Source: an uncultured Bacteroidota bacterium
Lineage (GTDB): Bacteria; Bacteroidota; Bacteroidia; AKYH767-A; JABDAW01
Length of the DNA: 58,516 bases
NCBI GenBank assembly: GCA_903911135.1
Contig: CAIWCG010000194.1
Coordinates: 1-58,516, forward strand
Reading direction: 5' to 3'
The first letter of the stretch is position 1; each line of letters starts with the position of its first letter. Of the stretch, positions 42,855-58,516 are shown one piece after another. A program made the position numbers and the translations under genes. The notes below the pieces were generated by a model. The model saw only the letters and a list, made by a program, of their open reading frames with translations. It ran no database searches and had not been told where the DNA came from.

Positions 42855-42975
42855 TTGAGGATACCATTAAACCCTACTTCTCTTATGCCAGAAAACCTGT
42901 GGCAATCTGGATTTCTAATTGGATAATAGTTGATTGGAGGATATGAAAATCCTTAATAGTTTATCCACAGGATGT
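42855..42975 (-). repeat. Cassette-junction repeat R1 (hairpin part conserved, promoter part degenerate)
   Basis: ..CATTAAACCCTACTTCTCTTATGCCAGAAAACCTGTGGCAATCTGG..AATTGGATAATAGTTGATTGGAGGA.. aligns with R2-R4. Confidence 0.75.
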
Positions 42976-42995: not shown

Positions 42996-44414
42996 TTATT
43001 CTTCCTTTTTCTTTTCGATAAAAACCCTGAAATGATAGTTAGCATCAATTTTCTTTTGGTACTCCTCCAAAATCATTTCATAAGTCAAACCGAAATCAAA
43101 TTCAGCAATGACACCTTCAATATATGGTTGTGGATCAAATCCGGTATTATGACAATAAATAAGCAATCCTTCGCAGGCAAAGAAGATTCGATTGGCAATT
43201 TCCTCCAAGATTTCACCTTCCAGCATCAATTTCCTTCTTTTAGGATTGTTTTCATCCACTTCTCCTGTTATTTTCCCTTCGGCAAGAAGATCTCCCATGA
43301 TAAAATAATTCCTGGCATCGCGATCATGGATAAAGAAGAGAAGAAAAGGCAACACAGACATTTTATGAAACCATTTCATGAATGTTTCACTGCTTTTCCA
43401 GTCATCCTCTTGCAGTATCAAGGTACTGCCTGCTATCTCCTCAAAAATGAACTCAAAGGCAAAAAGGCTTTTTTCTATCAGTAGTGGAAAATGCTGTAGG
43501 GCAAGGACTATTTCTTGAAATGAACTTTGCTCTTCCGCTTCTACGGCTGCAACAAGAACATGGATATTGGGAGTATGAGTCATCAAATTGCAATATTTTT
43601 TAAGAAAATCCATGTTCTTATAGATAACCTTATCACCAGGCAGCAGAAAATATTTCGGTCTTCCGGGTGCATCCAATATATCCTTAAAACTATCAGAAAG
43701 AGATGTATCCAAAAGATATTCTCCTAACAGTATGGTGTCTGTCATGGTCGATAATTCCTTCCAAAGTGCATACGATTCCCCCACAATTCCCATCAGGTCA
43801 TTATATCTATCCATGATATCGTTGCAGGTTTGGGTATGGTCGTCGCCATCAATATTATCCCTACTGTGATGTCTGCTGTATAAGTGATAATCTTTCTTGA
43901 AAGATTCCTTGTCAAGCGATAAATCTTCCATCTTGTCAATCATTATATCCCTGTTTTTGTAAAAACTCATGTAATCATCGTGGAACGCATCATAACCCAT
44001 CACATATTCTTCCCTTACAGTTCCATAATGTGCCATTTCATTGCCAAGCTTATCGATATGATTCTCATGAAAAGGGGTTATTTTCTCAAAAAGCTTATCT
44101 CTGTCAGCAATCAATTTATTGGTTGCCATCTTAGAAGTTGTGCGTTCGGCAACCAATTGTTTTGCTCTTGAATGATACGCTTCAATTGCTTCAGCAATAG
44201 GCTCAAATGCAGATTTTGCCAGTGAAACATGTTGGTCCAGTTCATTGAATATGTTCAATAGATTTTCCCGTTCAGGATAAAACCTGATTATATAATCATG
44301 AAGTTTGATATATTCTTTCAATAGGTCGATTTCAAATTCCTGTTCCAGCTTTTCATCGTCATACCTCAACACTATCGGTTTCAAAGGATGAGGAATTATT
44401 TTCTCTATCAGCAT
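42996..44414 (-). CDS. Hypothetical protein, orphan cassette gene
   Basis: 472 aa from the ATG at 44414; the track ORF uses an upstream TTG inside repeat R2. I recognised no motif. Acidic and helical. Confidence 0.65.
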   Translation of the reverse strand: MLIEKIIPHPLKPIVLRYDDEKLEQEFEIDLLKEYIKLHDYIIRFYPERENLLNIFNELDQHVSLAKSAFEPIAEAIEAYHSRAKQLVAERTTSKMATNKLIADRDKLFEKITPFHENHIDKLGNEMAHYGTVREEYVMGYDAFHDDYMSFYKNRDIMIDKMEDLSLDKESFKKDYHLYSRHHSRDNIDGDDHTQTCNDIMDRYNDLMGIVGESYALWKELSTMTDTILLGEYLLDTSLSDSFKDILDAPGRPKYFLLPGDKVIYKNMDFLKKYCNLMTHTPNIHVLVAAVEAEEQSSFQEIVLALQHFPLLIEKSLFAFEFIFEEIAGSTLILQEDDWKSSETFMKWFHKMSVLPFLLFFIHDRDARNYFIMGDLLAEGKITGEVDENNPKRRKLMLEGEILEEIANRIFFACEGLLIYCHNTGFDPQPYIEGVIAEFDFGLTYEMILEEYQKKIDANYHFRVFIEKKKEE

Positions 44415-44427
44415 GTCTTTATTTTTT

Positions 44428-44500
44428 TGCAAAGATACACATTAAACCCCACTTCTCTAATGCCGGAAAACCGGTGACAAGATGGGGTGTTAATGGAATT
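44428..44500 (-). repeat. Cassette-junction repeat R2
   Basis: TGCAAAGATACACATTAAACCCCACTTCTCTAATGCCGGAAAACCGGTGACAAGATGGGGTGTTAATGG. It overlaps the HEPN stop codon. On the minus strand it supplies TATCTTTG 15 nt before the next ATG. Confidence 0.85.
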
Positions 44501-44897
44501 CAGATGTAATGTTCATTTTCTTATGAACAAAATCTCTTATGTTTTTTGCAATTAGTATGGCATTGTTCGTTTCTGCCTCCGTTAATTCAATGGTAGTTTC
44601 AGGGTATCTGATTTCAACTGCATAATCTGCGAGTTCCATAATGCTGACAATCATGATTTCGTCTATTGATTCTTTGGCATTTATAAGTTCCAGCAGATAA
44701 ACCAAATCATGAGTTCTTCTAAACTCCACTTTCAAATAGATAAGATAGGCCTTTAAGTATTTTTCGACTGCCTGCTGGCAGTGAAATGCCGTTACATGAC
44801 GGTATTCTGGGATATGCATTTGTATAACCAATGCAGTACCCAAATCTTCATCTCCTTTCTCCACCCATTTCCTTATGATATCCATTTTATCGTTCAT
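44490..44897 (-). CDS. HEPN domain toxin (HepT-like)
   Basis: 135 aa. R-x4-H motif in EFRRTHDLVYL. Overlaps the upstream MNT gene by 11 nt. Confidence 0.8.
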   Translation of the reverse strand: MNDKMDIIRKWVEKGDEDLGTALVIQMHIPEYRHVTAFHCQQAVEKYLKAYLIYLKVEFRRTHDLVYLLELINAKESIDEIMIVSIMELADYAVEIRYPETTIELTEAETNNAILIAKNIRDFVHKKMNITSEFH

Positions 44898-45201
44898 ATA
44901 AAGTAGTACAGTTTTTCATTGCAGACGATAAGAATGAATAAGGATTCAGCAAGTCATCATTAAATTCTGATGGGGTATAAACCTTTAAGTCCATTGGTAC
45001 AAAAGAACCGAATAAATATTTTCTTACCTCCCGACCGCGACTTTGTTTTGGAAGGTCGGTATCCTTAATCACAATCAAATCCAAATCACTGTCCTCATTA
45101 GGAGTTCCATTGGCATAAGAACCAAATAAAATCACCTTTTCAGGCGCATAATTCTGAACTATCTTATTGACAATTTCAGTGATTTTTTCCTTTTTAATCA
45201 T
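44887..45201 (-). CDS. Minimal nucleotidyltransferase antitoxin (MntA-like)
   Basis: 104 aa. Motif LFGSYANGTPNEDSDLDLIV (GS..DxD). Confidence 0.8.
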   Translation of the reverse strand: MIKKEKITEIVNKIVQNYAPEKVILFGSYANGTPNEDSDLDLIVIKDTDLPKQSRGREVRKYLFGSFVPMDLKVYTPSEFNDDLLNPYSFLSSAMKNCTTLYER

Positions 45202-45225
45202 AACTGATTTTTTTATTTATCTGAA

Positions 45226-45345
45226 TGCAAAGATACACATTAAACCCTACTTCTCTAATGCCGGAAAACCGGTGACAAGATGGGGGGTTAATTGGATTAT
45301 TGGTGATTGGAGGAAATATAAGTCCTTAGTTTATCAACCTATAAG
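45226..45345 (-). repeat. Cassette-junction repeat R3
   Basis: Same sequence as R2, plus the extension AATTGGATTATTGGTGATTGGAGGAAATATAAGTCCTTAGTTTATCAAC shared with R1. Confidence 0.85.
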
Positions 45346-45371
45346 CCCTGAAATCCAATAAGACTAAACAG

Positions 45372-45752
45372 TTATTTTATTGTATAGCTTGGTTTGTTTG
45401 GATGCATCGGATTTGGCATCAGCTTTTGGGTGGCAGGATGAACGACTAAATCCATATCTTCCATAGGCACAGCCCCAAGCAATGTTTCATCACCAATAAC
45501 TAGAGCCCCAACAAAACAAAATCGGTTCTCAAAGTCAACCCGTATAGGGCCTACATAAGGAACCTGATGCGAACTGCCATCAGCTATGGTAACAGGGCGT
45601 TTATCCAATTCCTCCAGCTCCAATTGATAGGCCACAGATTGTGGAATGCACAACATTAATGCGCCGGTATCTACCAATGCATCTATTTCAACGGGCAATA
45701 GTGAGGCATTGCGCGGATTACTAAGTTTTATCTTTGAATAGGTTAAGCCCAT
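45372..45752 (-). CDS. Retropepsin-like (clan AA) aspartic protease, stand-alone
   Basis: 126 aa. Catalytic ALVDTGA, and the later ILGAVPMEDMDLVV-type segment typical of bacterial single-domain retropepsins. Confidence 0.7.
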   Translation of the reverse strand: MGLTYSKIKLSNPRNASLLPVEIDALVDTGALMLCIPQSVAYQLELEELDKRPVTIADGSSHQVPYVGPIRVDFENRFCFVGALVIGDETLLGAVPMEDMDLVVHPATQKLMPNPMHPNKPSYTIK

Positions 45753-45792
45753 TGTATTATTTGTTAAGAAACTTCTCTAGAATTTTTAAGAA

Positions 45793-45880
45793 TGCAAAGA
45801 TACACATTAATCCCTACTTCTCTAATGCCAGAAAACCGATGGCAAGCTGGGGTGTTGATTGGATTATTGGGGATTGTAAG
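45793..45880 (-). repeat. Cassette-junction repeat R4
   Basis: TGCAAAGATACACATTAATCCCTACTTCTCTAATGCCAGAAAACCGATGGCAAGCTGGGGTGTTGATTGGATTATTGG. It overlaps the last codons of the HNH-like gene. Confidence 0.85.
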
Positions 45881-46543
45881 AATTAGATTTTCTTTTACAC
45901 ATTTCAAAAGCTGTGAAGAACTGATTAACTGCAAATTCTTCATAAGGTTTATCTGTCAATTTAGTTTGCTCTATAATCGGTTGTATTATACCCTTTCTAT
46001 TTGCAATGATTGTTGGGTGATTAATTCCTAAAGTTTCAAGCATTTTAGTAACTCTTTCTTTATCATTTGGCGACAAATCGGGATTTGGGATAAAAATATG
46101 TTCCTTTTCATAATAGAAGAGTAATCTAAACTCATCATATTCAGGCTCATCAGGTTTAAGTATGTAATCAACCTCTTTTCTCCCCTTAACTTTAGCAGAA
46201 TTAACATCGGAATGAATCATAAATAAATTAGACCATAACCAAGCTTTACTTGCTTTTAAGTTAGGATCAAAATGATCTAATTCACCAAATGATTTATCTT
46301 CTCCTTCAAAACAATAACATCCATCTTTCCAATTTAATGTTTCATAAAATATCTCATCACATAATAAAGATTCTGTGTAAGCACAAACACCTTTTTGGCA
46401 ATAGAATAGACTCATCACAACATCTTTGTAAAACTTGTTGTTGATGAATTATATACTCCATGATTTCTATCATCATTTTCAAGTACTTCTTCCCAAGATT
46501 TGTATTGAGTAGATTGAACAACAGACTTATCAATTTTCCTCAT
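45864..46543 (-). pseudogene. ptuB: PtuB-like HNH (TIGR02646-type) nuclease gene, apparently split by a frameshift near 46415-46425
   Basis: The 184-aa ORF (45864..46418) has CAYTE, ELDHFDP, WSNLF and a LETLGINHPTIIANRKG-type tail. A 42-aa ORF (46415..46543) starts 3 nt after the ATPase stop and reads like the missing N-terminus, but in another frame. Confidence 0.55.
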
Positions 46544-46546
46544 TTA

Positions 46547-47911
46547 TTACCAAACATCATAATTAATTTTACCAGTATCCCATCCTATTTTTTCAGCGAG
46601 TTTTTTATAATCATTCCATGTTTTGTCAATCAAGTCTTTATCAGCTTTTTCAATTTTCAGTTTCTTTAATTTCTCTTCTAACTGAGCCAATTCAACTAGT
46701 TTAGGAGTTCTTTCCTTGCTATTGCCATCAGGTAGAAAATCATAAACCTTCTGATAAATTGTATCCCATCGCATATATCTTGGGTCAATAAAATAATTAT
46801 CAACATGATTCTCGCCCCTGTAATATTTATCTCTTAAAATATATCCATCTTGATTGAACTTCAATTCTGCAATTTCCCAAGGTTCAAAACATGATAGTAT
46901 AAAAGCAGAATGTGTTGCGAAAAAGAATTGTGAATTCTTAGCCAATGAAGTATATATTTCAATAATCTCCGCTTGAATATCAGGATAAAGAGAGCGTTCT
47001 GGTTCATCAAAGAAAATACCACAATTATTAGGTTTAAGATAATATAATGGGATTGCAGAAATTATTATTTGTTTTGTTCCTGTACTTAATGAATCAAAAG
47101 GTATTATTTCATTCGTATGTACATTCTGAATCTGTAAATTCAAATCATTAACATCCTCCAATTCTGTTTTAGTTTTTAAATGGAATTTATTCAGAATTGG
47201 ATCAAGACAATTCTGTGCTAAATCACTAACTGGGTTTGGATTTTCTTTTAACCAATTCTGATATTCATTTTTTAACTCATCAGAGTTTTCCTTCATTATT
47301 TTTTTAGAAATCTCAATTCTGAAGTTTGTTTCTTTTATCCTATATTGTTGAACTTGAATAAGTGCGATGTCCAAGGCTCTTCTAGCATCTTGAATATTAA
47401 AAAAGTAAAAAATAGATTCCATAAATATTCCCCCACTGGGTATATCATTTTGTTTTTCAGCAGGGTAACTCAAAACACTTATATCGAGTTTTGTCCGAAT
47501 TCCTCGAAAATGTTCTAAAGCTTGCTTCACTGTCATTTGTATAGAATCAACAATGATGTTATCAATAATTGCTACTTGGTTATTTTCAATTACAAAATCA
47601 TAAGATATTCGATAATTATCAGTAAATGAAAGGCGTATATATGCTCCTTTGGGTAATTGTATATTAAAACTTTCTAAATATAAAGTAGGATTAAATTTAT
47701 CAGTATGGGCAATAAAATTGTAATCAAATTTACAATGAAATCCTAATTGTATCAACTTCAGCAATGTAGTTTTACCAGTCCCGCTTTGTCCAATAAAACA
47801 AACTTTATCCAATGGCTGTCCTTCCTTTGGATGTCCCTGTGGATAGGTTAAGTCAAGAGTAAAATCCTTGAATTGATAAAAATTCTTGAGTTCTATTTTC
47901 TTCAGTTTCAT
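46547..47911 (-). CDS. ptuA: PtuA-like ABC/AAA_15-type ATPase (Septu-like)
   Basis: 454 aa. Walker A GQSGTGKTT, signature-like LSTGTKQ, Walker B IFFDEPERSL, H-loop FFATHS. Confidence 0.6.
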   Translation of the reverse strand: MKLKKIELKNFYQFKDFTLDLTYPQGHPKEGQPLDKVCFIGQSGTGKTTLLKLIQLGFHCKFDYNFIAHTDKFNPTLYLESFNIQLPKGAYIRLSFTDNYRISYDFVIENNQVAIIDNIIVDSIQMTVKQALEHFRGIRTKLDISVLSYPAEKQNDIPSGGIFMESIFYFFNIQDARRALDIALIQVQQYRIKETNFRIEISKKIMKENSDELKNEYQNWLKENPNPVSDLAQNCLDPILNKFHLKTKTELEDVNDLNLQIQNVHTNEIIPFDSLSTGTKQIIISAIPLYYLKPNNCGIFFDEPERSLYPDIQAEIIEIYTSLAKNSQFFFATHSAFILSCFEPWEIAELKFNQDGYILRDKYYRGENHVDNYFIDPRYMRWDTIYQKVYDFLPDGNSKERTPKLVELAQLEEKLKKLKIEKADKDLIDKTWNDYKKLAEKIGWDTGKINYDVW

Positions 47912-48108
47912 TTTAACGTATTTACTATTATAAGATTCGCAAAACTAACAAAATTTATCCATAAAATTTATAGCATTTTTTATCTTTGAAGATACTGGTG
48001 CAATTTATAAGGCATGCTTTTGACTCTAAAATCTGAAAACATTTTTAAACCAATAATCAATATTATATCAATTTCAAATGACTTTCTTAAATCTTTACTC
48101 ATTCCTCC

Positions 48109-48450
48109 CTACAGCACCGGACTATCCACATAAGTCATGAATCCTTCGCCACAAGTTTTCTTGATGTCGGCGATGACGAACTTGGTGGAGGGGAGGATGT
48201 TCAAGGTCTCCTTGCTTTCGGAGTGTTCTTTGCAGAGGGGGAGGATGTAGATGGTGGAATCTATGGGTTTGGTTTGCAAATCCAAACCATCCAGTTTATG
48301 AACATGCGTCCCTACGATGTCCACCTTGCCACATCCTGCCACCACGCAGCCTGTTATCTGGCGGAAGCTGAAGTTCTTGTAATGCTGAAACCAGTTGCCG
48401 CATCTACAATTCTTTTCTGTCGGCTTACTGCTGATTTTTACTTCTATCAT
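48109..48450 (-). CDS. Small Cys/His-rich protein, possibly a zinc-binding HNH-like fold
   Basis: 113 aa. Has CRCGNW..H, GCVVAGCG, VGTHVH and ILPLCKEHSE. Its 3' third is duplicated at 42671-42815. Confidence 0.6.
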   Translation of the reverse strand: MIEVKISSKPTEKNCRCGNWFQHYKNFSFRQITGCVVAGCGKVDIVGTHVHKLDGLDLQTKPIDSTIYILPLCKEHSESKETLNILPSTKFVIADIKKTCGEGFMTYVDSPVL

Positions 48451-48522
48451 TGTGTTTATTTTTATTATTGTTTCTCATTTTGTTAATCCCTTTTTATGCT
48501 TGATTATGCCTTTTTGACAAAG

Positions 48523-48761
48523 TTTGAAGGAATCTTTACATTCCTTCAAACAATGTCAACATTGTTTGAAGAAGTCCTTACATTCCTTCAAGGTATGTGA
48601 ACATTGTTTGAAGAAGTCCTTGCATTCCTTCAAGGTATGTAAACATTGTTTGAAGAAGTCCTTGCATTCCTTCAAGGTATGTAAACATTGTTTGAAGAAG
48701 TCTTGACATTCCTTCAAACAATGTCAACATAGTTTGAAGATATCCTTACATCCCTTCAAAG
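48523..48761. repeat. 42-bp tandem array (array 8), about 5.7 units
   Basis: Units start at 48523, 48565, 48607, 48649, 48691 and 48733. TTGAAG..CTTCAA and AAACA-T-TGTTT inverted repeats. The terminal units differ from the three inner units. Confidence 0.9.
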
Positions 48762-48781
48762 TTTCGTCTTTTAGCTAATTT

Positions 48782-49699
48782 TTACCTGTTTACAGTGATT
48801 TGAATAATCAAATCGAAGCCTTGAGGTCCATCTTTGGTTATAATTTGATGCATGAACCACACCTCTATTCCTCCGGCTAAACCTGTAACTTGGGTACTGG
48901 CCTTGGTAGTTGGCAACATTCTATCGAAGGAAACTCCATCAAAAGAGATATGCCAATCATGACAGCCATTAGATGTGCCTGAACCAGCAGCAGTAAGATG
49001 GATGGTTCCTTGCACCACCGAATTGAAGGCACTCCAAGGTTGCTTTCCTCTTGGAGTAATGGTTTTAACTGTGAACCCTCCTGATTTTATCCCCACTTCC
49101 GCCGTTCCAGGGTTAGAATTTCCATAAGTTTGATAAAGAAACATGATCGCCTGCATGGCATTGTTCAGCAGCGTGAAGGTGGATTCTTCGTTGCCCGACC
49201 CAGAATTACCGTAGTTGGTGGCCAATGTTCGTCCGGCAGTTACGGTAGCCGGAGGTACGGTAACATAAGTGGTGGTAGCCATCAAGGTAAACATGTCCAT
49301 GGCCTGTTTTGTCTTGTCGGCCTTGCTGCCTTTCCAGTTTATGGTGGCGATATACTTCTTCTGCATCACGGGCAAGGACATCAAGACGATTTGCCCGTTG
49401 TATTGGTGGGCATCCACCCCATTTGCATTCAACCTTTTCAAGTCAAATGCGCTGATGTCATAAATCACCACCGACTCATCCATGGTTTCGTAAAGATTGT
49501 TTTTGAACATCTCAAAACGAGCCAAGATAAAGTTCACCAACCATAATACAGGAATCAAGAATCGTGATGGTGATTTCACAATTTCTTCCTCATCCATGCC
49601 AAATTCCCTGATTTGGTCATTCTTCAATGCTCTTTCCGAACATTCCCTGTGCTTCCTGGCGGTGTAGGATTCTTCAGGTCTTTTTACTTTGATTTTCAT
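48782..49699 (-). CDS. Hypothetical protein with an FN3-like C-terminus (P305)
   Basis: 305 aa. C-terminus GIEVWFMHQIITKDGPQGFDLIIQITV. Leader AATTAAAAAATTAAAAACATG resembles that of P217. Confidence 0.6.
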   Translation of the reverse strand: MKIKVKRPEESYTARKHRECSERALKNDQIREFGMDEEEIVKSPSRFLIPVLWLVNFILARFEMFKNNLYETMDESVVIYDISAFDLKRLNANGVDAHQYNGQIVLMSLPVMQKKYIATINWKGSKADKTKQAMDMFTLMATTTYVTVPPATVTAGRTLATNYGNSGSGNEESTFTLLNNAMQAIMFLYQTYGNSNPGTAEVGIKSGGFTVKTITPRGKQPWSAFNSVVQGTIHLTAAGSGTSNGCHDWHISFDGVSFDRMLPTTKASTQVTGLAGGIEVWFMHQIITKDGPQGFDLIIQITVNR

Positions 49700-51041: not shown

Positions 51042-54000
51042 ATGGAAACTACCATTTACTCAACGTCAAACAAAGGTGTAACAAGGTCTTTGATGATTAC
51101 GATGACCTTCGTACTTTTACTGTTCAGCGCCAACCAAAGTGCTGCCTGGACGCAAACGTATCAGATTTCGTCGTCAAATCAATTGCTTTATTGCTATTCC
51201 AATTGCGGACCTGATTCCTATTACGGAGCATCAGAAGGAGGCGATATAGGCTTTACCTGGAATGACAATCTGGGGTTTGGAGTGAATATCAGTTCCATAA
51301 CCATTCGATTTAGAGTAGGTATGGAGTGCAATTGGGGAGATAAAAGCACCACGATGAATGGCAATTATGCAGGCATGTTTTCTACTACAGATAATTGCGA
51401 TTGTTCGCTTTCCATAGATCCAATCTTTACCCTTAACCCAAATCCGGGTGATTATGTAATAGGGGGTGCCAATACTTTTTTAGTAACCAACCTTCAAAAT
51501 AACTTTGGCTTTTTTATGGATAATGATACGCTTGGCGGTTATGCAATGATAACGGTTGAATATACTCAATCGCCATTCATCTCCAGCTATTCTACAAACA
51601 GTGCCTGTATTGGAAACAACATCATTATTCATGGTACAGGTTTGGCAAATGTCAATTCGGTAATGTTTTTTGATAATGTAGCAGCAACTATCCTATCCAC
51701 CGATGCAACAAGCGTTATAGTAGAAGTTCCATCGGGTGCTACCTCCGGTCCCATCACTGTTTCTAATCCTGACGGAAATTATGTAGGAGGTGATTTCTAC
51801 ATCAATGGAACGGCACCAATAATAACCTGTCCTAACGGGCAGGTACTTTATTCAGGTCAAAACGATTGCCAAGTTGAAGCAACATTCGATGGAATGACCT
51901 CAGATGGAGTGGTAACCTATATTTATAATTCCAATTACATCAGTTCTCCATATTTCTTTCCCATTGGGCAAAATATGGTAGAAATGAATGTGATGACGGG
52001 CAATTGTAATATTGCATGCTTTTTCAATATCTCCGTTCTCGATACCGTTCTTCCAATACTGACACCCTGCCCATCCGATGTGGTGCAGGCATGTGCAGGA
52101 ATCATTTCTTATGAGACGCCCACTGCTACAGATAATTGTTCGATTAGCATGGCAGCAAGTGTTACTTATGCCTATACCGGAACACAACAATCTTGGACCG
52201 TGCCTCAAGGATTAACCAATATTCAGGTTGACCTTAGCGGTGCTCAAGGAGGAGGTACACAGTTTGGCAGCGATGGCGGAGCAGGCGGACGAGTAACCGC
52301 TACACTACCAGTAAATGGAGGGCAGATACTATATATATATGTAGGTGGAGCGCCAACGGATAATTCCGGTGGATATAATGGCGGAGGCGGTTGTTATGGA
52401 AACGGATATTCAGGTTCTGGAGGTGGAGCCTCAGACATCAGATTCGATAGTCCTGATTTAGGCAATAGAAGGATTGTTGCCGGTGGTGGAGGTGGATCAG
52501 GAGCAAATTGTAATTCATCGGACGAATGGGGTGGAGCTGGTGGTGATTTAATAGGTCAGACTGGTTACCAATGTGGCGGTAATTGTTGTTACACTGGCAC
52601 AGGAGGAACTCAATATTCAGGAGGTTATGACCAATATGGTTATGGTGCTTCAGGAGCATTTGGTAATGGAGGAAATGGTATTTGGGATGGCGGCGGCGGC
52701 GGTGGTGGTTTTTATGGTGGTGGTGGTGGAAGCTACGGCGGTGGCGGTGGCGGTAGCAGCTATACCGATCCATCTGCAATGAATGTTGTCCACACACAAG
52801 ACTATCAGGTTGGTAATGGTTATGTTATCATAAATTATAATCAAGCCTATCCTACCGTTACCCAAACATCCGGCTTGCCATCAGGTTCCTTCTTCCAAGC
52901 TAATGTAACGACCAATACTTTTGTAGCATCCGATCAATCAGGTAACACGGTTGCATGTTCTTTTAATGTAACAATAGATGATATTACTCCTCCAGTTATT
53001 GCTGGTTGTCCTGACGATATATATTTAGCATGCCCTGGTGTTGTTGATTATTTCCCACCAACAGCATCTGATGATTGCGATTCGGTTTTAGTTTATCAAG
53101 CGGGAGGTTTGGCTCCAGGCTCTAATTTTGTAAATGGAGCAACTATCAATACTTTTATTGCAATGGATGCCACTGGCAACACATCACAATGCTCATTTAC
53201 GGTAACAGTAAGTGACTATACCCCTCCTGTAATATTTGATTGCCCAGGTGATGTTGTTTCCTCTTGTCCAACAACTGTAGATTTTAATCCTCCAACAGCT
53301 TCAGATGATTGCAATGATGTAAATATCCAACAAACAATAGGATATGGTTCAGGTTATTATTACACAAGTGGGGTTTCTGTTAATACCTTTGTGGCAATAG
53401 ACGGATCTGGGAATACTGCTGAATGTACCTTCACGGTTACAATATCAGATGTCGATGCTCCTGAATTTACAAGTTGCCCGACCGACATTACCATGGCTTG
53501 TCCCGATGTAGTTTCGTATGATATCCCAACAGCTACCGATGCATGCATCTATTTAACAATAGTGCAAACTTCCGGACTTGTTTCTGGTTCTTTCTTCCCA
53601 AATGGAATCACAACAAATACCTTCCAAGCTACTGATGGATCAGGAAACACATCAGTTTGTACTTTTAATGTTTCCATTGATGATTCCACTCCTCCAGAAA
53701 TTGCAGGCTGTCCAGCCGATACTGTTATGTCATGCCCAGGAATCATTAATTTCAATATGCCAACAGTGTCAGACAATTGTACCTCTTCTGCAAACGGAAG
53801 CATAACATTTTCCTATACTGGAATAATTGAGAACTGGATGGTTCCTAATGGTGTTCCTACAGTAACAATTACAGCGCTCGGAGCCCAAGGAGGTCAGAGC
53901 AGCGGAGGTTCAGGAGGATTAGGTGCAAGTATGACAGGTATGGTTTCGGTTACTTCAGGTGAATCATTAAAAATCTTGGTTGGCCATCAGGGCTATTACG

Positions 54001-57000
54001 GAACACAAGGTGGTGGTGGTGGTGGTTCTTTCGTGACAGATAACAGTAATAACCCATTGGTAATTGCCGGTGGTGGTGGTGGTGGATATAATGGAGGAAG
54101 TTCCAGTTATTCAGCAAATGCAAATGGATCAATTTATACACAAGGAAATTCTGGTGTTTATGGAAGTGGAAATACTTATGGGGGAGCAGGTGGAACAAAC
54201 GGTGGTGGCGGAAATTGCTCCCCTCAATTTGGGAGTTCAGAAGGATCTGGTGGTGGTGGACTTATTGGCAACGGTTCAAATTGTTATGGGACAACAGGCG
54301 GGTACTCTTTTGTAAATGGTGGTGCTGGAGGTTCAGGAAATGGAAGTGGAGGAGGCGGAGGATTTGGTGGCGGTGGCGGTGGCGATTGGTATTATTGGAC
54401 AGGTGGTGGCGGTGGCGGTGGTTATTCTGGTGGTGGTGGTGGCACGTACTATGGTGTTGGTGGCGGAGGCGGATCATTTAATGCTGGCACCAACCAAACC
54501 AATAATGCAGGTGTAAATCCCGGCAATGGTTTGGTAATAATTTCATGGAATAATACATATCCAATGATTTCACAAACATCTGGATCACCTTCAGGTACCT
54601 TTATTGTAGCAAATACAACAAATACTTTTACGGCAATAGATGGCTCTGGCAATACATCTATTTGTTCATTTAATATAACTGTTAATGATAACACACCTCC
54701 TGTATTCGCTAATTGTCCTGCCGATATTATTTTATCTTGTCCTGGTAATGTGGATTATATTACTCCAACAGCTACCGATGATTGTGCCATTGTTAATGTG
54801 GAACAAACTGCTGGTTTGCCAACAGGATCATATTTTGCAAATGGAGTTATGATCAATACTTTTTTAGCAACCGATGCAGCTGGCAATACGTCTGTTTGTA
54901 CTTTTTCAGTAACGGTGAGTGATTACACTCCACCAGTAATTTCAAATTGTCCAACAGATTATGTTTTATCATGCCCTGGAGTAGTTGAATATACCACTCC
55001 AACAGCGTCTGATGACTGCATTATTGTTAATATTGAACAAACAGTAGGTTTGCCTACAGGTTCTTTTTTCCCAAATGGGGTTACTATAAATACGTTTGTT
55101 GCAACAGATGGATCGGATAATACTTCTGAATGTTCATTTTCTGTATCTATCAATGATAATGTCCCTCCCGTAATTGCTAATTGCCCAATAGATTCTGTTA
55201 TGTCATGTCCAGGAATAGTTAATTTCAATATTCCAACTGTGTCAGATAATTGTTCTTCAAATATAAATGGCAGCATTACTTTTAACTATTCAGGTTCAAT
55301 CGTAAGCTGGATTGTACCTACAGGAGTAACATCTGTTTCAGTATTGGCATTAGGTGGTCAAGGGGGTAGTGCAAGCGGAGGAGTTGGTGGATATGGTGCA
55401 AGTATTATTGGAACTTTTAATGTAACGCCTTCGGATAATATTCAAATACTTGTAGGACAACAAGGTGGAAACAACGTCGTGAATCAATATTATCGTGGTG
55501 GTGGTGGCGGAGGGGGCAGTTTTGTTTATAATTCTTCTTCTTCCACTCTGATGTTAGCAGCAGGTGGTGGTGGTGGTGCCGGACAATATGGATATGGAAG
55601 TTCTGTCAATTCTGATGCATCAATAACAACTAATGGAAAGTCTGGATATAATGGTGGCTTTGGCGGTTCATCTGGTAATGGAGGTGGAGCATCTTCTTAT
55701 GGTAGCGGCGGAGCTGGTTGGAATTCTAATGGTAACAATAGCGGTTACTCAACAGGAGGTTCAAGGTTTCATGGTGGTGGATCAGGTGGAAACGGGTATT
55801 CTGATGGTGCCAATGGTGGCTTTGGCGGCGGTGGTGGTTCTTATGCTGGTGCTGGTGGCGGAGGTGGCTATTCAGGTGGCGGAGGCGGTGGATGGTCTTA
55901 TTCAGGTTACGGAGGCGGAGGCGGTTCTTATAATGGAGGAACAAATCCTATAAACACTGTAGGAGTCAATAGTGGAAATGGTTTGGTTGTTATTTCATGG
56001 AGTAATGTTTTTCCTAATATAACACAAACTTCTGGATTGGCATCAGGTTCATACTTTGCAAATGGAATTACAACGAATACATTCATTGCAGAAGACGGAT
56101 CAGGTAATACAGCGTCTTGTTCTTTTATAATAACAGTGAACGATGTAACTCCTCCTGAACTTTTCAATTGCCCATCTGATATTTCTGTTTCCTGCCCTGG
56201 AATAATAATATTTGGTTCACCAATAGCGAATGATGATTGTGGCGTTGCTACTGTCGAGCAAATTATTGGGTTAGTATCAGGAACTATTTTCCCTTCTGGA
56301 ACAACTGAAGTTATGTTTAGAGCAACTGATGGATCAAACAATACTAGTACTTGTTCATTTAATGTAATTGTAGATGTTGATAATACCCCACCAACTATTG
56401 TTGGTTGCCCATCAGATCTAACAGTTAATTGTTCAAATATTGTTTCATTCGTTCCGCCAACAGTTACAGATAATTGTAACAATATTTCTTTGTCTGGAGG
56501 AAGTCAAACCTTTAATTATACAGGCACAATACAACACTTTACTGTTCCAGCAGGAGTTACATCAGTTAATCTTGATGCTTTTGGTGCCCAAGGGGTTGCA
56601 GTAGGCATGTATTCAGGAAATGGTGGAGAAGCAAAAGGTACAATGGCCGTTATTCCTGGACAGGTTTTGAATGTATTTGTGGGAGGACAAAATTTATTTA
56701 ATGGAGGTGGAACAGGTTATCATGGTGCAAATGGAGGTGATGCAACCGATATCAGATATCCTTCAACATCTATGAATGACAGAGTAATAGTTGCTGGCGG
56801 CGGCGGCGGAGCTGGTGGAGATAATTGGATATGTCAAAGTGGGGTAGATGGAAGTGGTGGTGGCGGAATTGCTGTGGGGCAAAATTTTGTCGGAGGATCT
56901 GGAGGTAGAGGTTATGCATTTTGTGGAACATCTGGAGGCACGAATGGTGGCACATCAGGCAATTCCTATCATGGTGGTGGTGCAGGTGGCGGTGGGCTAA

Positions 57001-58516
57001 ATAGTGGTGGTCAAGGTGCAGCATCGGGTTATGGTACAGGGCAATCCGGTAGTTTAGGTCAAGGAGGATCAGCTTATCTTAATGCAAGTTGCTCAAATGG
57101 AATTGGCGGCGGCGGCGGCGGATATTATGGAGGAGGAGGATCAGCAGGAGGAAATTGTGGAGCAGGTCAAGGTGGTGGTGGTTCTTCTTGGACAGGTACT
57201 TTAATAAATCCGTCATTTAATGCAGGTATTCGATCTGGGGTAGGCTTAGCTATAATTTCTTGGGATGCCGTTAATTTCCCCATTGTAACATTGACATCCG
57301 GTTTGGATTCGGGGGCAATATTTCCTATCGGTACTACAACAAATATTTACACTGCTGTTGATGGTTCTGGAAATTCTTCCTCTTGTACATTTGACATTAC
57401 TGTTAGCAACAGTGCTTATGCAGTAATTACACCTGATGGTCCAACAACAATTTGTAACGGAAGTACAGTATCACTGGATGCAGGTAATTTTGCTTCTTAT
57501 TTATGGAATACGGGTGAAACTAATGAAATAATTATTGCTAGTACTACTGGTACTTATGCAGTAACTATTACAGATTATAATGGATGTACAGGAAGCGCAT
57601 CTCAAGATGTTCTCATTCATAATTCAGTTTCTCCTATTATTCATTCAAATTATAATTCAACCCATTGTGAAAGCACTTCATATCAACTTTATGCTCAAGA
57701 TCAAAATAATCAATGGTATCCTACATGCTTATGGAGTAATGGTGAAACAGGACATTATATTACGGCAAATACGAATGGTAACTATTGTGTAACAGTAACA
57801 GACCTGAATGGCTGCTCTAATACTTCATGTGTTGTGGTTTCTGTTATTCCTGTCGCAGTGATTACTCCAAGTCATCCGTTATGCGATGGCAATCCAGTTT
57901 CGTTTGATGCAGGAAATGGATATTCCGTATATTTTTGGAGCACAGGAGAAACAACAGAAGCCATTATTCCGAACCAAACCGAATGGTATTATGTAACAGT
58001 AACAAATGCACAAGGATGCACGGCATCGACCTCAATATATAATAATACGGTTTTTGATAGTACCGCCATCATTCAAGCGAGTGCATATCCTTGGGGAGGT
58101 CCGTATTATGATGTTTCACCAATATGCACCCGCACATCATATTATTTATATACAGAAAATCAAACAAATCAGTATTCATCCTATCTCTGGAGTACAGGTG
58201 AAACAGGATGGTATATTAGTGTTTCAACAAGTGGAATCTATAATGTAACAGTTACCGATGCCTTGGGATGCACAGGCGTTGCCAGTATAAATGTATCTGT
58301 AATACCCACGCCTACTATTGCTCCAAGTCATCCTTTATGTGATGGCAATCGAGTATCCTTTGACGCAGGTTTATATACATCATATATCTGGAATACCGGA
58401 GAAACAACAGAAGCCATTATTCCGAACCAAACCGAATGGTATTATGTAACAGTAACAAATGCACAAGGATGCACGGCATCGACCTCAATATATAATAATA
58501 CGGTTTTTGATAGTAC
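51042..58516 (+). CDS. Giant secreted surface protein (partial, runs off the window): IPT/TIG domain, then repeated HYR plus ALK-like glycine-rich modules, then Ig-like repeats
   Basis: I hand-translated the frame from the ATG at 51042 (in-frame TAA at 51015) and checked codon by codon over about 51042-53250 and 53802-54700; no stop. Signal peptide ..LLLFSANQSAAW. HYR pattern PP.I..CP.D....C...V.Y..PTA.D.C...GS.F..G.T....A.D..GN...C.F.V.V.D. Gly-rich blocks at about 52161-52845, 53801-54555, 55271-56010 and 56501-57270. Not in the ORF track because it has no stop in the window. Confidence 0.85.
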   Translation, partial: METTIYSTSNKGVTRSLMITMTFVLLLFSANQSAAWTQTYQISSSNQLLYCYSNCGPDSYYGASEGGDIGFTWNDNLGFGVNISSITIRFRVGMECNWGDKSTTMNGNYAGMFSTTDNCDCSLSIDPIFTLNPNPGDYVIGGANTFLVTNLQNNFGFFMDNDTLGGYAMITVEYTQSPFISSYSTNSACIGNNIIIHGTGLANVNSVMFFDNVAATILSTDATSVIVEVPSGATSGPITVSNPDGNYVGGDFYINGTAPIITCPNGQVLYSGQNDCQVEATFDGMTSDGVVTYIYNSNYISSPYFFPIGQNMVEMNVMTGNCNIACFFNISVLDTVLPILTPCPSDVVQACAGIISYETPTATDNCSISMAASVTYAYTGTQQSWTVPQGLTNIQVDLSGAQGGGTQFGSDGGAGGRVTATLPVNGGQILYIYVGGAPTDNSGGYNGGGGCYGNGYSGSGGGASDIRFDSPDLGNRRIVAGGGGGSGANCNSSDEWGGAGGDLIGQTGYQCGGNCCYTGTGGTQYSGGYDQYGYGASGAFGNGGNGIWDGGGGGGGFYGGGGGSYGGGGGGSSYTDPSAMNVVHTQDYQVGNGYVIINYNQAYPTVTQTSGLPSGSFFQANVTTNTFVASDQSGNTVACSFNVTIDDITPPVIAGCPDDIYLACPGVVDYFPPTASDDCDSVLVYQAGGLAPGSNFVNGATINTFIAMDATGNTSQCSFTVTVSDYTPPVIFDCPGDVVSSCPTTVDFNPPTASDDCNDVNIQQTIGYGSGYYYTSGVSVNTFVAIDGSGNTAECTFTVTISDVDAPEFTSCPTDITMACPDVVSYDIPTATDACIYLTIVQTSGLVSGSFFPNGITTNTFQATDGSGNTSVCTFNVSIDDSTPPEIAGCPADTVMSCPGIINFNMPTVSDNCTSSANGSITFSYTGIIENWMVPNGVPTVTITALGAQGGQSSGGSGGLGASMTGMVSVTSGESLKILVGHQGYYGTQGGGGGGSFVTDNSNNPLVIAGGGGGGYNGGSSSYSANANGSIYTQGNSGVYGSGNTYGGAGGTNGGGGNCSPQFGSSEGSGGGGLIGNGSNCYGTTGGYSFVNGGAGGSGNGSGGGGGFGGGGGGDWYYWTGGGGGGGYSGGGGGTYYGVGGGGGSFNAGTNQTNNAGVNPGNGLVIISWNNTYPMISQTSGSPSGTFIVANTTNTFTAIDGSGNTSICSFNITVNDNTPPVFANCPADIILSCPGNVDYITPTATDDCAIVNVEQTAGLPTGSYFANGVMINTFLATDAAGNTSVCTFSVTVSDYTPPVISNCPTDYVLSCPGVVEYTTPTASDDCIIVNIEQTVGLPTGSFFPNGVTINTFVATDGSDNTSECSFSVSINDNVPPVIANCPIDSVMSCPGIVNFNIPTVSDNCSSNINGSITFNYSGSIVSWIVPTGVTSVSVLALGGQGGSASGGVGGYGASIIGTFNVTPSDNIQILVGQQGGNNVVNQYYRGGGGGGGSFVYNSSSSTLMLAAGGGGGAGQYGYGSSVNSDASITTNGKSGYNGGFGGSSGNGGGASSYGSGGAGWNSNGNNSGYSTGGSRFHGGGSGGNGYSDGANGGFGGGGGSYAGAGGGGGYSGGGGGGWSYSGYGGGGGSYNGGTNPINTVGVNSGNGLVVISWSNVFPNITQTSGLASGSYFANGITTNTFIAEDGSGNTASCSFIITVNDVTPPELFNCPSDISVSCPGIIIFGSPIANDDCGVATVEQIIGLVSGTIFPSGTTEVMFRATDGSNNTSTCSFNVIVDVDNTPPTIVGCPSDLTVNCSNIVSFVPPTVTDNCNNISLSGGSQTFNYTGTIQHFTVPAGVTSVNLDAFGAQGVAVGMYSGNGGEAKGTMAVIPGQVLNVFVGGQNLFNGGGTGYHGANGGDATDIRYPSTSMNDRVIVAGGGGGAGGDNWICQSGVDGSGGGGIAVGQNFVGGSGGRGYAFCGTSGGTNGGTSGNSYHGGGAGGGGLNSGGQGAASGYGTGQSGSLGQGGSAYLNASCSNGIGGGGGGYYGGGGSAGGNCGAGQGGGGSSWTGTLINPSFNAGIRSGVGLAIISWDAVNFPIVTLTSGLDSGAIFPIGTTTNIYTAVDGSGNSSSCTFDITVSNSAYAVITPDGPTTICNGSTVSLDAGNFASYLWNTGETNEIIIASTTGTYAVTITDYNGCTGSASQDVLIHNSVSPIIHSNYNSTHCESTSYQLYAQDQNNQWYPTCLWSNGETGHYITANTNGNYCVTVTDLNGCSNTSCVVVSVIPVAVITPSHPLCDGNPVSFDAGNGYSVYFWSTGETTEAIIPNQTEWYYVTVTNAQGCTASTSIYNNTVFDSTAIIQASAYPWGGPYYDVSPICTRTSYYLYTENQTNQYSSYLWSTGETGWYISVSTSGIYNVTVTDALGCTGVASINVSVIPTPTIAPSHPLCDGNRVSFDAGLYTSYIWNTGETTEAIIPNQTEWYYVTVTNAQGCTASTSIYNNTVFDS
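57945..58516 (+). repeat. Intragenic direct repeat: 119 bp identical at 57945-58063 and 58398-58516 (453-bp spacing)
   Basis: GGAGAAACAACAGAAGCCATTATTCCGAACC...TTTTTGATAGTAC is identical in both places. The flanks are only loosely similar. Confidence 0.9.

Follow-up and report, generated by a model that had tools for sequence, protein, structure and literature searches.

The window in this work is the whole stretch of 58,516 nucleotides (nt) that was analysed from an uncultured Bacteroidota bacterium (contig CAIWCG010000194.1, positions 1 to 58,516 of the forward strand). On its minus strand the window carries a stand-alone (type I) two-gene Septu defence operon, ptuA-ptuB. The sequence alignments indicate that ptuB, the nuclease gene of the operon, carries a single-base deletion after codon 34 relative to its intact relatives. 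We consider it quite probable that this stand-alone Septu was acquired horizontally and that its nuclease gene was recently inactivated by the loss of this one base.

The frameshift in ptuB

The ptuB gene is distributed over two open reading frames (ORFs) of the minus strand. The 5' fragment (46415..46543) is an ORF of 42 amino acids (aa) in which codons 1-34 (46543..46442) are homologous to the N-terminus of PtuB and codons 35-42 form an out-of-frame tail that ends in TGA. The 3' part (45864..46448) lies in a frame that is open from 46448 and encodes the HNH core and the C-terminal helices. Within this part, the 184-aa ORF (45864..46418) starts with GTG at 46418 or alternatively with ATG at 46415. 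It lies in the -1 frame relative to the 42-aa ORF, whose TGA overlaps its GTG/ATG.

The translation of the 184-aa ORF contains the CAYTE, ELDHFDP, WSNLF, and MIHSDVNSAK motifs. This ORF is matched by 17 PADLOC PtuB models (best expectation value (E) 9.7e-14) and by the PADLOC retron I-A HNH model (1e-12). The PtuB matches begin at about profile position 37-54, therefore the N-terminus is missing from the 184-aa ORF. Neither ptuB piece exhibits a Pfam match at E <= 0.1.

Relatives were collected by a database search with the downstream frame opened from 46448. The search returned 113 proteins, one of which is the window's own 183-aa product. The remaining 112 relatives are 163-240 aa long (209-240 aa in 105 of them) and all of them are single proteins. 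The closest intact relative is P0002, which consists of 221 aa and shares 79% aa identity. An earlier note on this DNA, made from the sequence alone, had located the N-terminus of PtuB in another frame, within the 42-aa ORF. The protein alignment agrees with this, as residues 1-34 of the 42-aa ORF match the N-termini of the intact relatives and the other frame resumes exactly at residue 35 (NNKFYKDVVM...), with the frame switch between S34 and N35. The comparison of orthologs that had been proposed in the same note as a test of the frameshift revealed no complete ortholog made up of the 184-aa part only, and the start Met is aligned with Met1 of the intact reference in 106 of the 112 relatives.

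The note had implied that the break is located at the overlapping TGA TGA. Both the protein alignment and the DNA alignment move it to 46442/46443, after codon 34 and 25 nt upstream of TGA TGA. The DNA alignment was made with L009, the locus that encodes a 99% relative of P0002, and it exhibits a single one-base gap. This gap marks the frameshift site (46442..46443, minus strand), where one base is absent from the window (TTCATC-AACAAC) compared with L009 (TTCATCTAATAAC).

A PtuB profile built from 27 intact relatives was searched against the whole own genome. It matches the 184-aa frame (positions 33-218, E 1.5e-74) and the 42-aa frame (positions 1-48, E 9.1e-7) and nothing else in that genome, hence the genome has no second or intact copy of ptuB. 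Residues 35-42 are encoded in neither ORF because no ATG, GTG, or TTG start precedes 46418 in the long frame. The two pieces retain residues 1-34 and 43-226 of a notional PtuB of 226 aa, which extends 5 residues beyond the C-terminus of P0002.

The ptuA gene and the layout of the operon

The ptuA gene (46547..47911, minus strand) is an uninterrupted 454-aa ORF that encodes an ABC/SMC-type ATPase with Walker A, signature, Walker B, and H-loop motifs; GQSGTGKTT, LSTGTKQ, FFDEPE, and ATHS are found in its translation. The ORF is matched by the PADLOC PtuA model PDLC00274 (E 2.4e-66) and more weakly by other PADLOC models, namely further PtuA, AriA, AbiLi, and GajA models. The Pfam matches of the ptuA product to AAA_15 (78.7 bits, E 8.8e-22) and AAA_21 (62.6 bits, E 8.6e-17) are both above the cut-offs. 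The solved retron PtuA chains are weak sequence matches to this product, and the cut-off of NF041760 was not reached by the ATPase (33.9 vs 500 bits).

Both genes are co-oriented with ptuA first, and a gap of 3 nt separates the ptuA stop from the start of the 42-aa ORF. A PtuA homolog is located directly upstream of the PtuB relative in eight of nine related metagenome loci, and the ninth locus has only 80 nt of upstream sequence. The reading of this locus as a Septu-like PtuA/PtuB pair in the earlier note is upheld by these PADLOC matches to PtuA and PtuB, by AAA_15 and AAA_21, and by the fold search described below, in which the top 11 matches are PtuB only. The ORF coordinates and the motifs quoted there were also recovered on the minus strand.

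A possible -7 promoter element, TAGTTTTG (47940..47947, minus strand), ends 28 nt upstream of the ptuA ATG. It resembles TAnnTTTG, which we take to be the Bacteroidota-type -7 consensus, and is thus a possible candidate for an element of this type.

An association with a retron was considered and rejected, as neither a reverse transcriptase nor a retron RNA is found near the operon. No RVT_1 match was found in the window, the neighbouring ORFs are without a reverse transcriptase domain, and the single RVT_1 match of the genome is on another contig (C187). The Rfam search revealed no retron RNA in 43500-49500. The Septu is therefore a stand-alone one.

Two side observations concern ptuA. Two 151-nt contigs from a permafrost metatranscriptome of a different study (run X4) are identical to ptuA (47579-47882), and their presence in an RNA library is not equivalent to transcription. 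The PtuA match is in two separate pieces at two other loci (L012:564-1905 and L013:610-1641), and these operons may also be damaged, in ptuA.

Consequence of the frameshift for PtuB

The stand-alone Septu is reported to form a 6:2 PtuA:PtuB complex in which the nuclease is inhibited by ATP binding, and the reported substrates of Septu are nicked plasmid DNA, single-stranded DNA (Eco4), and tRNA-Tyr (Eco7), which is depleted (PMC12640716). It has also been reported that Septu cleaves the variable loop of tRNA-Tyr against phage T6 (PMC13096335). In a working Septu, the PtuB HNH nuclease is reported to be held by oligomers of the PtuA ATPase; the binding of ATP restrains it, and infection triggers the cleavage of nucleic acid.

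An uncultured lake-water bacterium would have gained the Septu operon of the window by horizontal transfer, into a small accessory patch of its genome. The ptuB gene of the operon would have been inactivated recently, with ptuA and the rest of ptuB left uninterrupted and all conserved residues in place. Translation from the native ptuB start would end after 42 residues, and a second product would begin from residue 43 or 44 at best, via re-initiation at the overlapping TGATG. The near-invariant Asp41 is within residues 35-42 and would be present in neither product.

The residues that are conserved before residue 43 are Lys6 (106/112 relatives), Tyr14 (105/112), Trp17 (102/112), His28 (104/112), and Asp41 (110/112). 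Judging from these residues, ptuB has probably lost its function. The structure was predicted by AlphaFold for the intact P0002, not for the broken product of the window, from the alignment of 27 intact relatives. The model has a predicted local distance difference test (pLDDT) score of 93.9 and exhibits a helix (12-23), a loop, and a second helix (39-50). When the break is placed on this model, it falls in the loop between both helices, and the restart at residue 43/44 falls in the middle of the second helix. The long piece would be without helix 1 and half of helix 2.

Mutation, assembly error, or recoding

The earlier note had left it undecided whether the gene is frameshifted, is recoded, or contains an assembly error. 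Among these three, a frameshift mutation is favoured. The break is conserved in none of the 112 relatives and the ORF of the closest relative is uninterrupted at the same place; the few short relatives either begin further upstream or come from short contigs. Where the two frames overlap (33 nt), there is neither an X XXY YYZ heptamer nor a run longer than TTTT. The missing slippery site and the lack of any relative that shares the break point to a mutation, and recoding is very unlikely. A Logan contig from a lake-water metagenome (run X1, depth about 10), which is the probable source of the window, spans 45700-46734 with 0 differences and 0 gaps compared with the window. Logan represents a second assembler and the comparison was made at the contig level. 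An artefact of the assembler is therefore unlikely. The 183-aa product is also recorded on 5 contigs from NCBI, Logan, and ENA. Three other runs (X7, X2, and X4) cover small parts of the stretch and none of them reaches the frameshift site.

Several observations weigh against the inactivation of ptuB by mutation. Evidence at the contig level leaves room for a minority intact allele or for a consensus error that is common to both assemblers, and run X1 may be the very sample from which the window came. There is no second lesion in ptuB and all invariant downstream residues are kept; this would be expected of a very recent mutation, but just as much of an error or of a split that is tolerated. 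The relatives also conserve an ATG (Met44) at the point where the short ORF stops, and its overlap with this stop could allow the synthesis of a shortened PtuB that still has the HNH core and the C-terminal helices for PtuA binding.

The gene may be intact in the cells, where the absent base would be a sequencing or consensus artefact, or an allele of part of the population that was collapsed into the metagenome-assembled genome. This is consistent with the undamaged remainder of ptuB and with the nature of the genome, which is a metagenome bin of 296 contigs with about 10x local depth and was compared at the contig level, not at the read level. The two assemblies are identical base for base over 45700-46734, the shortened product is on 5 contigs from three sources, and the site is not a long homopolymer, all of which argue against an artefact. 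We regard an intact gene as fairly unlikely.

The split may instead be tolerated. Termination-reinitiation at TGATG would then yield a PtuB that begins at residue 43 or 44, and this shortened protein would still bind PtuA and act as a nuclease, whether or not the 42-aa peptide is present, so that the Septu would still defend the cell. The A of the TGA that ends the short ORF is also the first base of the ATG at 46415, and the part of the model in which the break lies, the loop between helices 12-23 and 39-50, has the lowest confidence of the N-terminal half. The long piece also holds all residues of the HNH core and the C-terminal helices, the part that binds PtuA in Eco7 (PMC12673091). The missing residues 35-42 with Asp41 (110/112) and the halved helix 39-50 speak against it, as does the conservation of Lys6, Tyr14, Trp17, and His28 in 102-106 of the 112 relatives, which argues that these residues are needed. 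No relative is split likewise. A tolerated split is unlikely.

Programmed -1 ribosomal frameshifting or transcriptional slippage that restores the full-length 226-aa PtuB at a regulated low level is extremely improbable: a -1 shift at 46442 would yield exactly the homologous protein and the low expression of a toxic nuclease is a plausible use, but the candidate was rejected because a slippery site is missing, because the break occurs in none of the relatives, and because the closest one has a plain uninterrupted ORF at this place.

The PtuB clade without the canonical zinc finger

The sequence searches of the PDB were marginal for the clade of ptuB relatives, with E of 0.016 to 0.69 for the clade profile and 0.17 for P0002 to PtuB; a fold search was therefore needed. 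The top 11 Foldseek matches in the PDB to the P0002 model are all PtuB chains (retron Ec78/Eco7, Ec83, type I-A retron, and E. coli Septu 8eea_G), with E from 1.7e-6 to 2.4e-3, probability 1.00, and template modelling (TM) scores of 0.51-0.68. The next matches are HNH domains of Cas9 with E of about 0.2. On the basis of its predicted fold, the clade clearly belongs to PtuB.

His91, Asn106, and Asn115, which are residues of the catalytic type, are conserved in 111-112 of the 112 relatives and are present in the window. An alignment was made of the window frame, 5 intact relatives, and 5 TIGR02646-type ORFs from genomes of the same class (L041, L043, L044, L046, and L048), which are those that passed a motif filter among 12 loci; the other 7 were dropped. 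In this alignment, the canonical CxYCE and the CxxC after NL correspond to CAYTE and NLFM-x-x-x-D-[IV]-N. The same alignment exhibits about 20 residues inserted between CAYTE and the catalytic Asp/Glu-His in the clade.

The replacement of the second Cys pair that had been described in the earlier note is present in the sequence, yet it is not a peculiarity of the window copy. Across the 112 relatives, the positions after the NLF motif include no conserved Cys column. The first pair has likewise lost its second Cys, with CAYTE where the canonical sequence has CAYCE: CAYTE is found in 109 of the 112 relatives, CAYSE in 2, and CAYCE in 0, so that 111/112 exhibit CAYTE/CAYSE. A loss of the second Cys pair in this copy was thus rejected, as the trait is clade-wide. 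From these alignments, the missing canonical Cys4 zinc finger is an inherited trait of a PtuB clade of about 220 aa and not damage.

In Eco7 PtuB, the residues C43, C46, C78, and C90 coordinate the zinc, and defence is abolished when all four are changed (PMC12673091). The clade conserves Cys49 (102/112), Cys54 (112/112), and Cys62 (94/112). The clade may have rebuilt a metal site from these three residues and His28, in which case the frameshift would part His28 from the other three. No split or zinc-less PtuB was found in the literature that was searched, which consisted partly of titles and the first parts of abstracts.

The clade is poorly covered by current models. The cut-off of TIGR02646, a model whose landmarks the earlier note had recognized, was not reached by the window ORF (26.5 vs 52.15 bits) or by three intact relatives (18.9-20.5 bits); of the model searches proposed there, those with PADLOC PtuA/PtuB, AAA_15, and AAA_21 gave matches. 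The cut-off of NF041761 was likewise not reached by the window ORF (26.6 vs 150 bits) or by three intact relatives (29.6-31.3 bits). The intact relatives reach only 1e-11 to 1e-14 on the PADLOC models.

Genomic context of the operon

The operon sits in a low-GC accessory patch. The proportion of guanine and cytosine (GC) is 0.28-0.31 across 46000-47999 and 0.36-0.46 around it. PtuA was not found in the two genomes of the same genus that were searched (G001, 98% complete, and G002, 58% complete). Downstream of the operon are an Asp-protease-like gene, an MNT-HEPN pair, and a 478-aa ORF of unknown function, and upstream is a Cys/His-rich 113-aa ORF, also unknown.

The MNT-HEPN pair (44490-45201, minus strand) consists of an MNT nucleotidyltransferase (104 aa) and a HEPN protein (135 aa) encoded by overlapping genes, and the MNT protein matches the PADLOC candidate PDC-S09. 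Overlapping MNT and HEPN genes are the usual toxin-antitoxin arrangement.

The Cys/His-rich 113-aa ORF (48109-48450, minus strand) lies upstream of ptuA and has no family assignment in Pfam or PADLOC. At the very start of contig C30 of the same genome (L026, G000:C30:1-363) there is a closely similar ORF of 120 aa, a paralog or a strain variant, which is followed by different small genes, a repeat copy, and a ParE/RelE-like ORF. The region of the 113-aa ORF may be a variable hotspot, or there may be strain heterogeneity in the bin.

The 305-aa ORF (48782-49699, minus strand) is further upstream and has no Pfam family. It belongs to a multi-copy family in the genus that is matched 12 times in G001 and 9 times in G002. 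The flanking CAAX-protease gene has an ortholog in G002 only (63% identity), where its neighbours are unrelated. The borders of the insertion are defined neither by the synteny of the CAAX-protease gene nor by the multi-copy 305-aa gene. The gap between the 113-aa and 305-aa ORFs is filled by an array with a 42-nt period (48475-48804), in which six copies of a 120-nt reference are offset by 42 nt and each copy is internally palindromic. The Rfam search of this array revealed two chance-level microRNA matches only. A giant ORF of >2491 aa (51042-58514, plus strand) runs off the window, and its first 1000 residues include HYR repeats and a glycine-rich domain of the ALK/LTK type.

Repeats downstream of the gene units

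A locus-specific repeat of about 105-113 nt is present in four co-oriented copies on the minus strand. Copy 1 (45782..45885) covers the ptuB stop and roughly the 7 codons before it, copy 2 is located at 45215-45335, copy 3 (44428-44500) overlaps the stop of the HEPN gene, and copy 4 is located at 42860-42965. The four copies each follow a gene unit, namely ptuAB, the Asp-protease-like gene, the MNT-HEPN pair, and the 478-aa unknown. The genome has a fifth copy on contig C30 (G000:C30:1290-1348). Within the repeat, TTAAC...GTTTAA surrounds a CCGG-TTTT-CCGG hairpin, and a TATCTTTG motif forms the end of the repeat, a short distance before the next gene.

Outside the own genome, 61 genomes were searched for the repeat, and matches at E < 0.001 were confined to the two genomes of the same genus; one further match, of 24 nt, is in G021 (E 0.007). 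Three copies about 130 nt apart with no gene between them were observed in G002 (L019, G002:C61:9689-10025), flanked by a DNA-methyltransferase fragment with a 327-aa ORF and by a MazF/PemK-like 116-aa ORF. No Rfam family was found for the repeats.

The layout of the repeats recalls integron cassettes because each copy follows a gene unit and copies 1 and 3 overlap stops. The attC sites of integrons are imperfect hairpins with AAC...GTT ends that follow each cassette and often overlap stop codons. A repeat-delimited, integron-like cassette array without IntI that shuffles defence and toxin cassettes in the lineage may begin with the Septu operon as its first unit, and we regard this as quite unlikely. 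The absence of IntI and the weak folds argue against it. No integron integrase was found in the genome, where two Xer-like genes of 308 aa, located on contigs other than that of the window, give the best TIGR02249 score (70.2 bits vs a cut-off of 265). When the four copies were each folded on the minus strand, a single one folded better than its shuffles (z -3.6).

Significance and comparison with known systems

The locus is a further, probably inactivated example of the known Septu system. The defence system Septu is already well described, and it is unremarkable to find a broken copy of it in an environmental bin. Defence finders would still call the locus Septu because the 184-aa fragment passes the PtuB models, which is a positive call on a probably dead system. 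The Cys4 zinc finger, which is essential in Eco7 PtuB (PMC12673091), is not a universal requirement of PtuB nucleases, because there is a clade of 112 relatives without Cys4 in which PtuA is upstream in 8 of the 9 metagenome loci that were fetched.

The locus was compared with three groups of systems. The stand-alone E. coli Septu PtuAB (PDB 8EEA/8EE7), reportedly described by Li et al. in 2024, has the same two-gene ptuA-ptuB layout without reverse transcriptase and an ABC/AAA_15-type PtuA, and the fold predicted for the PtuB clade matches its chain 8eea_G (Foldseek E 4.3e-5, probability 1.00, TM scores 0.54-0.68). However, the sequence similarity of the clade to solved PtuB is marginal (profile E 0.016), about 20 residues are inserted in the clade after CAYTE and before the catalytic His, three of the four Cys of the zinc finger are missing, and ptuB of the window is frameshifted.

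The PtuAB proteins of retron-Eco7/Ec78 and Eco4/Ec83 (type II Septu; PDB 9U9Y, 9NNB, 9L7P, and 9E90) are the best structural matches (9u9y_H, E 1.7e-6; TM scores 0.59-0.68). The PADLOC retron I-A HNH model, which matches the window ORF, also matches P0002 (3.9e-14). Unlike the retron systems, the operon in the window has neither a reverse transcriptase nor a non-coding RNA beside it and its ATPase is below the NF041760 cut-off. Unlike retron-Eco7 PtuB, in which C43, C46, C78, and C90 hold the zinc (PMC12673091), the clade would be unable to form a Cys4 zinc finger.

The short PtuB proteins (183-184 aa, PDLC00347-type) of the relatives G038 and G003 share the same operon layout and CAYTE/CAYSE without the second Cys pair, and the PtuA proteins beside them, which are the nearest homologs of the window PtuA, are 43-50% identical to it over residues 1-360. 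These short proteins nevertheless belong to a different lineage, with a PDLC00347 match of 2.6e-54 for the short type vs 4.1e-11 for the window clade. The similarity of PtuA extends to about residue 444 when PtuA is paired with PtuB of the window clade and to about residue 360 in G038 and G003, which fits a PtuA C-terminus that co-varies with the type of PtuB.

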